The notes under the pieces: model-generated
Told to the model about the DNA's origin: nothing
What the model saw: the letters and a program-made list of their open reading frames with translations, nothing else
The model's database searches: none
Shown here: positions 3,123 to 15,196 of the stretch, piece after piece
Layout of the letters: each line of letters starts with the position of its first letter
How positions within the stretch are numbered: the first letter of the stretch is position 1
Origin: a virus
IMG/VR virus record: IMGVR_UViG_3300044691_000347
Coordinates: 1-64,000 of that record
Strand: one strand, 5' to 3'
DNA: 64,000 bases
Program-made: the position numbers and the translations under genes

Positions 3123-4774
3123 GCAGCCATCGGTGTTTCGGCAGCGACTCCCCCATTGGTGTTGTCGCTGTCGGTGCCGTCGTCTTGGAGATCACTATGC
3201 GCCTGCATCGTTGGGTCTTCCGGTGGCTGTCCCGCGAAATCACCGGGCGCCGGCACCGATACCTGCATTTCTTCCTTGATGCGATCCACTTCCGCATCAA
3301 CGTCGTCGCTGGACATGTTCGGGTTGAACATGCGGACGCTAGCCTCAATCGAGATCGCGTCAGCGGTACGAAGGTTCATGATGGTTTGCGACAGCTGAAT
3401 CGGGCTCTGATCGGCGCGTACCGGAAACTTCATTTCCGGGTTAGCTTTGATGCCGTAGCTGCCGCCGTACACGATCTGGTCTACTTCGAGCATCGTGCGC
3501 GCCAGTGGAGCCATCGCCGACTGCCAGTACAAAACCTTCTTGGACCGGGTGCGGTTCGAAAGATCCTGCCGTGCAGACACTTCCGTCGCCGTGATGCTGG
3601 ACGCCATCTGGTCGTCACCGAAATCGCCGATACTGTAGCCAGCAGCAACGAGGATACGGTTCATCAGAGCATCGCAAGTCGCCTTGTGCTCTGCATGCCG
3701 GATCTCGAATTGCTGCGCCTGCACAAGACTGCTCTTATCTTCCGGCAGCCCCATCGCAGTTCCCGGGACAGGACTATAGATTGCCTGCTCAGGATCCCAA
3801 TACGAGCCGTTGCCGGGACCAGCATCCGTCAGCGCGTCCTCCGCGACAAATAGACGTGCCTTGGCTAGGTCGAGGTCCCGCATCCATGAGCTATAGGCTT
3901 CATCGAGCGAATCGAACAGCGACTCAAGCCCCTCAAAGTCGCTGCGTCCCAACGGACTCAGCATGGGGACGTTGCGCCACTTGCGAGAGGGGCGGACATT
4001 CGGGACGTATGCGGCAGTCAAGCCGCTAACACGCGTCGCGATTGACCCGTTCGTGTCGACGAGATCCGCGGCCCACGCTGTAGCCGGCTGCTCGCTCAGG
4101 TCTGCCAGACGCCCAATGTCGCCGTCGTCGCCCTTATAGAGGGCATGGAAGATAGCGCCCGGCTCGTGCCGTTCCAGATGACGCCACACACCAGTCTTGT
4201 CATCGCACACGGTCGTCCAAAACGTGACCGCGGACAGCATGCCGTAACGCCACTCGGGGATAGCGCAATCGGGTGCGACGGTACCAACCATGACTTTGTC
4301 GACAGCGTCTTTATCCCACCACAAGCGCAGGTACGCGCCGCCTAGGGCCGCTTGAATTTCGGCGGCCTCCAGTAGCGTCGCGACCGTATCCGCGCCCTCC
4401 AAGAGAATGTTCAGGCGATCCTGCGCGGCCCCCAAATCGGATGCTTCGCCATCAGTCAGCACCCACTGCGGCGGCTGCCCGAACAGAAGATCAGCGGACG
4501 TGCGCGCCACATCCGCAGGCGCCGGAACATGCAGACGTTTCGTGCTGGACTGCATGGGAGGACGCCCCCACCAGAAGCGGGCAAGTCGGCCCAGGAAGCC
4601 GCTGTAATACTGAGAGCGGTGCGCAACAGCAGGTGTGCCATCGGGGAACAATTGGTACAAGCGCTGAAGGGTGAAGGTGTCGCCTTCGAGCCAGGCGCTC
4701 CACAGGTTGTAGGCATCTTGAGCTTGATCCCACGGTTCGGGCGGCCACACACCACTGTAATCGGGCATCGGCAT
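3119..4774 (-). CDS. Portal protein (SPP1/A118-like)
   Basis: 551 aa, GRSDF...LDEAYSSWMRDL, ITATEV, acidic tail; lies between terminase and minor capsid. Confidence 0.9.
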   Translation of the reverse strand: MPMPDYSGVWPPEPWDQAQDAYNLWSAWLEGDTFTLQRLYQLFPDGTPAVAHRSQYYSGFLGRLARFWWGRPPMQSSTKRLHVPAPADVARTSADLLFGQPPQWVLTDGEASDLGAAQDRLNILLEGADTVATLLEAAEIQAALGGAYLRLWWDKDAVDKVMVGTVAPDCAIPEWRYGMLSAVTFWTTVCDDKTGVWRHLERHEPGAIFHALYKGDDGDIGRLADLSEQPATAWAADLVDTNGSIATRVSGLTAAYVPNVRPSRKWRNVPMLSPLGRSDFEGLESLFDSLDEAYSSWMRDLDLAKARLFVAEDALTDAGPGNGSYWDPEQAIYSPVPGTAMGLPEDKSSLVQAQQFEIRHAEHKATCDALMNRILVAAGYSIGDFGDDQMASSITATEVSARQDLSNRTRSKKVLYWQSAMAPLARTMLEVDQIVYGGSYGIKANPEMKFPVRADQSPIQLSQTIMNLRTADAISIEASVRMFNPNMSSDDVDAEVDRIKEEMQVSVPAPGDFAGQPPEDPTMQAHSDLQDDGTDSDNTNGGVAAETPMAA

Positions 4775-12675: not shown

Positions 12676-13130
12676 CTGAGGCCCTTGATAACGGAGGTCT
12701 GCAACTCCGGTCCACCGTCTTTCGGTCCCAGCGCATAGCGTGGACTGTAGGGCACGGCAGTCATGCGTTTTAACACCTGAGCCTTGCGGCTACCGCCTTA
12801 CCGTGTATTTCGGCCCCACATGCGCGGCAGGGAATGTTAGCCCCTGCTGCCCCGACGACTCTCCGTCGCCGGGCCGCGCAAGTTTAAAAGGTGGGCGGCT
12901 TACTAGGCCAATCGACCGGAGGACGAACACTTAGTCATGTAAGTTGATCCGGTGCCACAACACTTTGTCCGCTAAGACTGGAAAGCCTCGGGCCGCTAAG
13001 CCTTCGGTGGATAGTGGTTCCTCAGCACTCGCCGTTGGTTCCACTTCATTCCCGTTGTGCACATTTCAGCCCGCGTTCCCGGTAGGCTGAACACTCTGTC
13101 ACCACCAGCGCGAGCCGCTAAACCCGCGCT
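12676..13130 (-). ncRNA. Large ornate non-coding RNA candidate (ROOL/GOLLD-like context) containing a hatchet-like domain
   Basis: No credible ORF; more than 10 helices, GCAA and GAAA loops, several long-range pairings; flanked by tRNAs. Confidence 0.65.
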
Positions 13131-13931: not shown

Positions 13932-14224
13932 GCTGCCACCTCTTTCTTTGTCGGTCGTCTCGTCCCCTGCATCTCCCGGACACGCCCTACACCGGTCGGC
14001 CCATACCAGAGGGCTTTCGAAACCTCGCCGGCGATCACCTCGGGTGCGGGATGCCCCCAATGCCATAGGCCGTCGATGTGCGGGCATGGATAGGCTTGCA
14101 GCCGTTCACCCGGAAACCGGCGTCGCGCTGCGGTGCGTGCGTGTTTGCGGCTCGGGTAGGCGTGCTTCCGGCACTGCTCACACCTGCCGACCGCGCGACC
14201 ATCAACCGGTCTGTTCCTGTTCAC
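13928..14224 (-). CDS. Small zinc-binding protein
   Basis: CEQCRKHAY...AYPCP...WHWGH; coupled overlaps at both ends. Confidence 0.6.
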   Translation of the reverse strand: MNRNRPVDGRAVGRCEQCRKHAYPSRKHARTAARRRFPGERLQAYPCPHIDGLWHWGHPAPEVIAGEVSKALWYGPTGVGRVREMQGTRRPTKKEVAA

Positions 14225-14868
14225 GCCGCCTCCCCGAAGTCGAGCGGGAAACCTGGATGGTTGTCAGCCGTGTCGATCCAACTCATCAGCTTCGGCAAAT
14301 TCTGATCCGGCCCAAATGTCAGGTAAGTCCCGTCGACCGAGTTGCAGCCAATGGCCTCCGCGTACCGAAAGCGGCGCAACGAGTTCACTCTTCCCATGTG
14401 TACCCACTTCCCGCGGCGCTTCGCCTCACCCACGAGTGCGCGCGCACTCGAACTCAGTTTCCATTCCGTCGATCCGCCAATGAACAAGACGTCGAACTCG
14501 CTCCACGGGATCGCCCATGGCGCAGGCAGCGCTTCCAAGCCGTCCTGGGCGACAAACGCAGCCGGGTAGCCCAACTCTCGGACTTTCGGCAGCCAAGGGA
14601 GCGAGCGCCGTAGAGTCGCGACGGCGTCACCGACAACATCGGGCGCGGTAGCGAATAGGCATGTTCCCGCATCAGTTGCGTTGGCTGTCAACCATGTCAG
14701 CCATGCCGCGTCTCCTGGATACCCCTTGCCGAAGCAGCCGTTGTCAGCACACCAACTGACACCAGAGGGCCGCTTGTTGCCTTGCGCTGGGGTATCGATG
14801 AATCCGAGCATGCCGCTCACCATGGCTGCCACGGTCGCCGCACCGCACGGGTTGGCCATGTATTGCAT
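14221..14868 (-). CDS. TGT/DpdA-like (7-deazaguanine transglycosylase-fold) protein
   Basis: ADNGCF, APDVVGD, VAQDG, LFIGG, VHMG and SVDG motifs in TGT barrel order; next to the QueF-like and VUT genes. Confidence 0.65.
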   Translation of the reverse strand: MQYMANPCGAATVAAMVSGMLGFIDTPAQGNKRPSGVSWCADNGCFGKGYPGDAAWLTWLTANATDAGTCLFATAPDVVGDAVATLRRSLPWLPKVRELGYPAAFVAQDGLEALPAPWAIPWSEFDVLFIGGSTEWKLSSSARALVGEAKRRGKWVHMGRVNSLRRFRYAEAIGCNSVDGTYLTFGPDQNLPKLMSWIDTADNHPGFPLDFGEAA

Positions 14869-14872
14869 CGCG

Positions 14873-15196
14873 TCACGCTCGGCCTCGCTTGACCCGTACA
14901 CTCATGCTGGCGGTCGTCCATGTGCTCGACACGCCAACGACTTCGGGGCCGTCAAGCGAGGCCAGTTCGTCGAACACGCGGCTTGTCAGAGCTTCGTGCG
15001 ATATCGGCGTTTCAGCGAAGCCATTGAAATATTCTGCCAGTGCATGCAATTCGAATGTACAATCCGAGACCAAGAACACGACCGTGACCTCACCCTCGTC
15101 CACTTCGTCCGCAAATGGGCACAAGTGTTGGATGGGTGCGGTGATGGTGACAGTCTCCGGCCCGACTTCAGGCGAAAGATTTCTGACGATCGACAT
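14873..15196 (-). CDS. QueF-like T-fold protein
   Basis: LCPxxxxxD catalytic Cys/Asp spacing, ELHALAEY at the QueF-motif position, ISHE. Confidence 0.7.
   Translation of the reverse strand: MSIVRNLSPEVGPETVTITAPIQHLCPFADEVDEGEVTVVFLVSDCTFELHALAEYFNGFAETPISHEALTSRVFDELASLDGPEVVGVSSTWTTASMSVRVKRGRA

Follow-up and report, generated by a model that had tools for sequence, protein, structure and literature searches.

A hatchet-like motif in the tRNA-array spacer of a Nocardia-type phage is probably a non-cleaving look-alike

A stretch on the minus strand of a phage tRNA array resembles a hatchet ribozyme, which raises the question of whether the site self-cleaves. The window analyzed here is a stretch of 64,000 nucleotides (64 kb), positions 1 to 64,000 of IMG/VR record IMGVR_UViG_3300044691_000347, and the genome is that of a complete, Nocardia-type phage of 91,377 bp with terminal repeats. 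The minus-strand array consists, in order, of a tRNA-like element (13204-13133), a 457-nt spacer (13132-12676), an intact tRNA-Met(CAU) (12675-12601; Rfam score of 68 bits and an ARAGORN call), tRNA-Ser, and tRNA-Thr. Genes for PNKP, an HNH protein, an RNA ligase, and a metallophosphoesterase are located upstream of the array on the same strand, those for PNKP and the RNA ligase 3.5 to 6.3 kb upstream of the site, and a cutinase-type lysin and the large terminase are encoded downstream. The whole spacer contains no credible ORF, and a promoter and terminator scan yielded nothing informative. A sequence-only reading had placed a hatchet-like domain in this spacer and had described it as either a switchable ribozyme or a non-cleaving core reused in a larger RNA. 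Our analysis favors, with a probability of about 0.7, the view that the site neither self-cleaves nor serves as a functional hatchet domain, and that it is a non-cleaving look-alike in a phage tRNA-array spacer.

The first element of the array was called tRNA-Tyr (anticodon AUA) by ARAGORN, was not recognized by the Rfam tRNA model, and has counterparts in related genomes that were called Ile or undetermined; because of the negative Rfam result and these differing calls, it is regarded as a tRNA-like element and not as a standard tRNA. At the other end of the spacer, the segment preceding tRNA-Met (12761-12676) is specific to the window, has no counterpart in the relative L116, and includes a 34-nt leader hairpin (12710-12677, minus strand). 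This hairpin is 97% identical to a tRNA-Trp leader (L288, 1533-1501, minus strand) on a host-family genome contig that is otherwise unrelated (G106:C39), which suggests that a pre-tRNA leader module may be mobile or conserved.

The hatchet-like motif is real: read on the minus strand, its register is exactly that of a hatchet, and all of its elements were found where the sequence-only reading had placed them. Three nucleotides upstream of the site is a 9-bp hairpin with a GGAGA loop, P0 (12873-12851), which belongs to the minimum-energy fold and whose stem is identical in L116 (4477-4499). The P1-like hairpin (12847-12827; loop CUAACAU), recognized from both sequence and fold and homologous to a hairpin in L116, has 6 bp formed by G12847-G12842 with C12832-C12827 and an optional seventh pair, G12841·U12833, leaving a loop of 7 to 9 nt. 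It is followed by the linker equivalent C12826-G12825-C12824, which together with the start of the P2 5' strand (12826-12821) also constitutes the 3' strand of a closing stem in the fold. The segment 12820-12812 contains the end of the P2 5' strand, the equivalents of U28-G31, and the P3 5' strand (GCAUG, 12823-12819; UGGG, 12818-12815; GCC, 12814-12812); it matches the hatchet consensus and also resembles positions 5-13 of tRNA-Met. The place of P4 and L3 is taken by a 28-nt insert (12811-12784) that aligns with the D-loop to anticodon arm of tRNA-Met. The remainder of the motif (12783-12762), identified from the sequence and our own hatchet model, comprises the P3 3' strand GGC (12783-12781), U12780 at the position of G63, C12779 as the C64 equivalent, AGGUGUUAAAAC (12778-12767), an extra G (G12766), and the P2 3' strand CAUG (12765-12762). 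The conserved C, UGGG, CA, and AAA residues named by the sequence-only reading are all in register (C12826, 12818-12815, C12779-A12778, and A12770-12768). The deviations that it listed were a short P2 with an extra G and a poor P4; only the CAUG/CAUG pairs of P2 can form (4 bp), the fifth pair is G·A with G12766 inserted, and P4/L3 is absent. The insert can form only a 4-bp hairpin (GCGG/CCGC or AGCC/GGCU), which is flanked by single-stranded stretches of 15 nt and 2 nt and does not stack on the 3-bp P3.

No second cut site was found within 1.9 kb of the hatchet-like site. A second AGGGG..AACAU..CCCU hairpin at 13258-13242 (minus strand) is statistically unconvincing alone. In its longer form (13258-13230, minus strand), the hairpin UAGGGG-AAACAU-GCCCUA followed by GCAUUGUGGGGG is found upstream of the tRNA-like element and is reminiscent of the P1 plus GCAUGUGGGG module at 12847-12814, and it is likewise statistically weak.

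The requirements of the hatchet class (Rfam RF02678) have been described in detail (Li et al. 2015, PMC4604424; Zheng et al. 2019, PMC6561176). The linker is C20-A21-A22, in which A21 and A22 make Hoogsteen contacts, and the base preceding CAG is the conserved G63, whose replacement by A leaves "hardly any cleavage" (PMC6561176). Cleavage is abolished when the extruded L3 residues, which contact L1, are deleted (PMC6561176), and disruption of P4 or P2 inactivates the ribozyme (PMC4604424). The identity of N(-1) is not critical, positions 67-70 are variable (PMC6561176), and a P0 hairpin is found in about 90% of hatchets (PMC4604424). Measured against this standard, the site has a P1 of 6 bp (hatchets have a P1 of either 3 or 6 bp and are cleaved at its 5' base), the U28-G31 equivalents with the G31-C64 and C20-G30 pairs (12818-12815, C12779, and C12826), and the equivalents of A65, G66, and A73-A75 (A12778, G12777, and A12770-12768). 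A12848 at position -1 and GU at 12776-12775 are harmless, since the class tolerates variation at the -1 base and at positions 67-70. The linker is CGC (A21G and A22C), the G63 platform base is replaced by U12780, P2 has 4 bp and the inserted G12766 in place of 5 bp starting one nucleotide after A75, and no P3-L3-P4 helix with an L1-L3 contact is present.

The consensus given by the sequence-only reading was written as a pattern (CATGTGGGGC, 15-45 nt, CAGNNGTTAAAAC) and scanned in IMG/VR. Elsewhere, it matched only four contigs (L002-L005), all with true Hatchets that scored 84-93 bits (gathering score, 51) and adjoined RAGATH RNAs. This consensus was mostly accurate but missed the CAA linker and G63. 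In a sample of 65 distinct IMG/VR hatchets, picked by pattern and P2 pairing, the CAA linker was found in 65 of 65, as it is in the Rfam consensus, and no G was inserted before P2, a feature whose absence the sampling filter itself demanded. CAA and G63 are likewise retained in a more divergent hatchet with a 3-bp P1. When IMG/VR was scanned for hatchets with a pyrimidine at position 63, 32 random-looking matches and no hatchet were obtained. The contigs of all 65 pattern-found hatchets have a GC content of 30-39%. Canonical hatchets adjoining RAGATH-9, RAGATH-14, and RAGATH-7-associated RNAs were observed in AT-rich phage contigs of about 50 to 100 kb in IMG/VR (L002-L005; L165, 6294-6444; L133, 5305-5454), some of which carry a second, more divergent hatchet with a 3-bp P1 about 1.6 to 2.0 kb away.

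The lack of a score in a cmsearch with the Rfam Hatchet model was one half of what the sequence-only reading had itself named as counting against a hatchet. No match was obtained with this model, at the gathering threshold or at E<=10, on the 64-kb window, on 1.8-kb and 151-nt segments, or on the whole 91-kb genome, and no other Rfam family matched 12880-12676 at either threshold. Our own covariance model (R1) was built from 18 nonredundant IMG/VR hatchets, with the window sequence excluded, and was run with filters off. On both strands of the window, its sole match was 12853-12761 (minus strand), which covered the full model, aligned the site exactly as the sequence-only reading had done, and scored 15.8 bits (E ~0.17). 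True hatchets outside the training set scored 48 to 108 bits, and decoys in 77 kb of related GC-rich DNA scored up to 12.5 bits; the site is thus at least 30 bits under the weakest true hatchet. In a blastn comparison of hatchets with the window, the site was at noise level (E 0.5). A global alignment indicated a resemblance of P1, L1, and P2 to one natural hatchet subtype, the L176-type (z = 7). Although the site resembles a hatchet, defining features of the class are missing, and it is not assigned to RF02678.

The chance level of such a match was estimated with a descriptor of 18 conserved core bases and the P1, P2, and P3 pairs, in which P4 was ignored and the maximum score was 32. The site scored 27, with 15 of the 18 core bases and all P1 and P3 pairs present, which was the best score in the window; the next best was 25. 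Scores of at least 27 were reached in 2 of 250 simulated window-equivalents (~0.8%). In the same array, a hairpin-plus-tRNA-like stretch around 13239 reached a score of 24. The match is partly beyond chance: a site like this is rare in any single window (~1%) but would be unremarkable in a survey of a great many windows.

A large terminase search identified four close relatives with 74-80% TerL identity, all of them Nocardia proviruses: the IMG/VR proviruses L116 and L117 and the Nocardia genomes L122 (Nocardia sp. CC227C) and L123 (N. aurea). With R1, the hatchet-like core was not found in any of the four, and the Rfam Hatchet model found none anywhere in their genomes. Conservation and covariation of the core were not observed, as the core is missing from L116, L117, L122, and L123.

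The sequence-only reading had further claimed that an upstream strand can pair over P1, the linker, and P2, and this pairing does exist. The 5' strand of the closing stem, UGCGCG (12880-12875), is extendable to 12873; as UGCGCG(GC) (12880-12873) it is complementary to 12828-12821, and its pairing with 12826-12821 is part of the minimum-energy fold. The segment 12883-12820, which includes P0, the P1 hairpin, and the closing stem, matches L116 4468-4531 at ~85% identity (nhmmer), and this match is the entire 64-nt spacer between tRNA-Trp and the real tRNA-Met of that provirus. L116 retains the closing stem, has two of the lower P1 pairs disrupted, and lacks the core. Because L116 keeps the stem without the core, the "switch" strand is part of a conserved unit of two hairpins that occurs in the absence of any ribozyme, and the strand did not evolve as a ribozyme switch. 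In L116, ordinary tRNA processing would free the unit at 4468-4531 as a discrete RNA of ~62 nt.

This phage alone has ~144 extra nt after the two-hairpin unit, and the first 60 of these contribute the hatchet-like words UGGGG, CAG..GUUAAAAC, and CAUG, correctly placed in register. No homologue of the spacer was detected by blastn, in near and distant modes, among 50,697 phage records. An IMG/VR scan for the P0-P1 junction recovered only L116's own contig and three chance matches, with no second copy of the core, and a DNA search of 401 host-family genomes recovered only the 34-nt tRNA leader match and no core copy. The 78 loci that share the neighboring gene at 14221-14901 (a deazaguanine-module gene) were not syntenic and carried no related RNA. 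Orthology of the core with tRNA-Met plus the downstream spacer of L116 was considered and rejected, as the alignment had a z of about 0 once the P0-P1 unit was removed. A small conserved ORF of ~90 aa, starting with MQNITIGRYK or MRNINIERYE, was observed after the RNA region in L117 (2907-3179) and L116 (from 4947).

The adjacent tRNA-Met of the phage itself aligns collinearly, over its positions 1-60, with the 60-nt core. The local alignment score was 33, which was equaled by 2 of 1,000 dinucleotide shuffles, and the core was the top non-self slice of the strand; when the best of 28 tRNAs was taken for comparison, 18 of 500 shuffles reached the score of the core. Read as a tRNA, the core would have the top of its acceptor stem at "P2," the stretch from U8 to the D stem at UGGGG, and the T loop at GUUAAAA. 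A tRNA model gave no match to 12830-12757 at E<=10, and ARAGORN made no call at the core down to 75% thresholds (ps75). In simulated decay of the P0-P1 unit plus tRNA-Met, a descriptor score of 27 occurred in 3 of 38,106 trials, about 8 times the random rate and still rare. Concerning where these 60 nt came from, descent from a true hatchet that has decayed is put at somewhat under even odds and can be held only tentatively; decay of a duplicated neighboring tRNA-Met into a coincidental mimic of the hatchet is almost as likely, and an unrelated spacer is an unlikely source.

One proposal on origin, which is compatible with an inactive element, is that an ancestor carried a true hatchet between P0/P1 and tRNA-Met; this hatchet would have decayed in the present phage and been lost by deletion from L116. 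In its favor, the descriptor score is seldom reached under either the random or the tRNA-decay null model, and the P0-P1-linker-P2 register is accompanied by the likeness to the L176-type hatchet. Furthermore, true hatchets with a GCAUG P2 (L176-type, L152, and L168) align to tRNA-Met (12675-12601) at z = 2-3.5, so the tRNA likeness of the core is partly a by-product of its hatchet likeness. Under identical local scoring, however, tRNA-Met is the better match to the core, with a score of 33 compared with at most 30 for any hatchet. The relatives have no hatchet, the pyrimidine-63 scan returned only random matches, and all 65 pattern-found hatchets are in contigs of 30-39% GC, with none found in a high-GC phage. 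To our knowledge, no hatchet is known in any high-GC phage. A relic of this kind is a serious proposal, although it is considered a minority one.

For the non-cleaving look-alike, the following course of events is proposed. The RNA would fold as the closed two-hairpin unit, in which the linker and half of P2 are buried. Without a P4/L3 scaffold, and with a pocket that has no G63, A21, or A22, a hatchet pocket would probably not form. Self-cleavage is not expected because the linker and P2 would be buried and P4/L3, G63, A21, and A22 are missing; the hatchet-like words would then have no catalytic role, and the downstream tRNA-Met would presumably be released by host RNase P and 3' processing enzymes. 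Several observations count against this reading. The site has the full hatchet register and is the top match of an independent model in the window. It has the P0 hairpin, intact equivalents of the G31-C64 and C20-G30 pairs, and the L176-type likeness. The fold penalties of true hatchets overlap the value of the isolated site, and the published mutant at position 63 is G63A, while the site has U.

A rival proposal is an active, highly divergent, GC-rich hatchet that cuts between 12848 and 12847 and is gated, in that the upstream strand must leave before P1, the linker, and P2 can form. In its favor, the site is a full-length, in-register match and the sole R1 match in the window, the equivalents of C20, U28-G31, C64, A65, G66, and A73-A75 are present, the P0 hairpin is in place, and the -1 base is not critical and positions 67-70 are variable in the class (PMC6561176). 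Folding gave a divided picture. Enforcing P1, P2, and P3 cost 8.5 kcal/mol in an isolated 97-mer, which is inside the range of 3.7 to 11.5 kcal/mol for 12 true hatchets in isolation, about half of which have the consensus as their minimum-energy structure. In context, however, enforcing the hatchet pairs cost ~10 kcal/mol with the upstream strand and 16 to 19 kcal/mol in longer contexts, placing the hatchet fold 10 to 19 kcal/mol over the minimum. Fold penalties were computed without tertiary contacts and can serve as supporting evidence only. Activity is further opposed by the absence of an Rfam score and the deficit of at least 30 bits with R1; by G63U, A21G, and A22C at the site when CAA is invariant in 65 of 65 hatchets; and by the inserted G before a 4-bp P2 and the missing P4/L3. 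Among the five relatives, the site is found in this phage only, and the "gate" stem is conserved where the core is missing (L116). Cleavage at the site is accordingly judged improbable, and the divergent, gated hatchet as an explanation fares no better than a long shot. If the site were active, a class known only from AT-rich metagenomic phages would reach actinophages, the essential bases of the hatchet core would be redefined, and ribozyme cutting would be tied to tRNA-array processing and to the phage RNA repair enzymes.

Another proposal, in line with the suggestion that a non-cleaving core is reused in a larger RNA, is that the site is a structural, noncatalytic domain of one large functional RNA (13132-12676) that employs a hatchet-type core as a folding module. 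The spacer lacks a credible ORF throughout its length, it lies in a single tRNA array on one strand, and its 5' part is indeed a conserved RNA of ~250 nt (13130-12880, minus strand), here called RNA-A, with nhmmer matches in L117, L122, and L123. In these relatives, RNA-A (~230-250 nt) is located at 2630-2859 (L117), 2756-2964 (L122), and 3803-4032 (L123), in each case directly after the tRNA-like element. Its sequence includes an invariant GCGCUGGUGGUGACAGAGUG and a pair of hairpins with CUUAGCGG (CUCAGCGG in L122), and no Rfam family matched it. However, conservation ends at ~12880, after which an ORF or unrelated sequence follows in L117, L122, and L123, and the 13130-12880 and 12880-12676 parts never co-occur in the four relatives. 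The hatchet-like part has no homologue that would support a structure, and the fold of the 457-nt spacer is no more stable than that of shuffled sequences (z = -0.87). Comparison with the relatives shows the "450-nt ornate RNA" to be a composite in which only the 5' 250 nt (13130-12880) are conserved. The suggestion from the sequence-only reading is therefore compatible with our data as far as the core being non-cleaving is concerned, but its reuse in a larger RNA is unsupported, and a structural domain of this kind is unlikely. A working hatchet that tolerates U63 and a CGC linker and is held off by the conserved upstream closing strand until the stem opens is the least probable version of events; if true, it would have no precedent among hatchets either in high-GC actinophages or within tRNA operons, and its cut would leave a 2',3'-cyclic phosphate and a 5'-OH in a phage that has its own PNKP and RNA ligase genes.

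With the look-alike reading preferred, the main value of the locus lies in the caution it offers about mimicry in tRNA arrays and in the dissection of the "large RNA." Several words of the hatchet core (UG-GGG following a stem of 4-5 bp and GUU.AAA ahead of the return strand) are also present where a hairpin precedes tRNA-like sequence. The word-level likeness between the hatchet core and the acceptor, U8-G10, and T-loop parts of a tRNA can produce false positives in tRNA arrays. Since tRNA-like sequence can mimic the motif, by-eye calls in such arrays need covariance-model and comparative checks.

In comparison with known systems, the site shares with the hatchet (RF02678) the order P0, 6-bp P1, 3-nt C-initial linker, P2, UGGG, and P3, followed in register by a bulged base, CAG, two free bases, GUUAAAA, one base, and the P2 3' strand. 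Equivalents of G31-C64, C20-G30, G66, and A73-A75 are present, and, like true hatchets, the site is located in a phage noncoding RNA/tRNA region. It differs from the hatchet in having CGC for CAA, U for G63, an extra G before a 4-bp P2, and no P4/L3; its L1 is not UGAGAAU-like, and a competing closing stem is present. In addition, it is a single occurrence in a high-GC genome, with no Rfam score and with 15.8 versus 48 to 108 bits in our own model. The core also resembles a tRNA pseudogene or tRNA-derived spacer, as it lies in a tRNA array directly upstream of the intact tRNA-Met, is collinear with it, and keeps an anticodon-stem remnant (AGC/GCU). Unlike a tRNA pseudogene, it has no covariance-model match and has lost the T-stem and D-stem pairings, its tRNA likeness is partly common to true hatchets, and it has no similarity to the L116 tRNA-Met at the orthologous position. 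The third comparison is with theta ribozymes, HDV-like ribozymes that adjoin phage tRNAs, trim the tRNA, and self-cleave at their own 5' end (PMC10879173). They have another fold, belong to another family, and come from gut phages (PMC10879173). Theta is described as lying immediately 3' of the tRNA (PMC10879173), whereas the hatchet-like site is 285 nt from the upstream tRNA-like element, and, in contrast to theta, no activity is supported at the hatchet-like site. The theta ribozymes nevertheless provide a precedent for small self-cleaving ribozymes beside phage tRNA genes (PMC10879173), and because of this precedent the ribozyme idea was a reasonable one for this locus.
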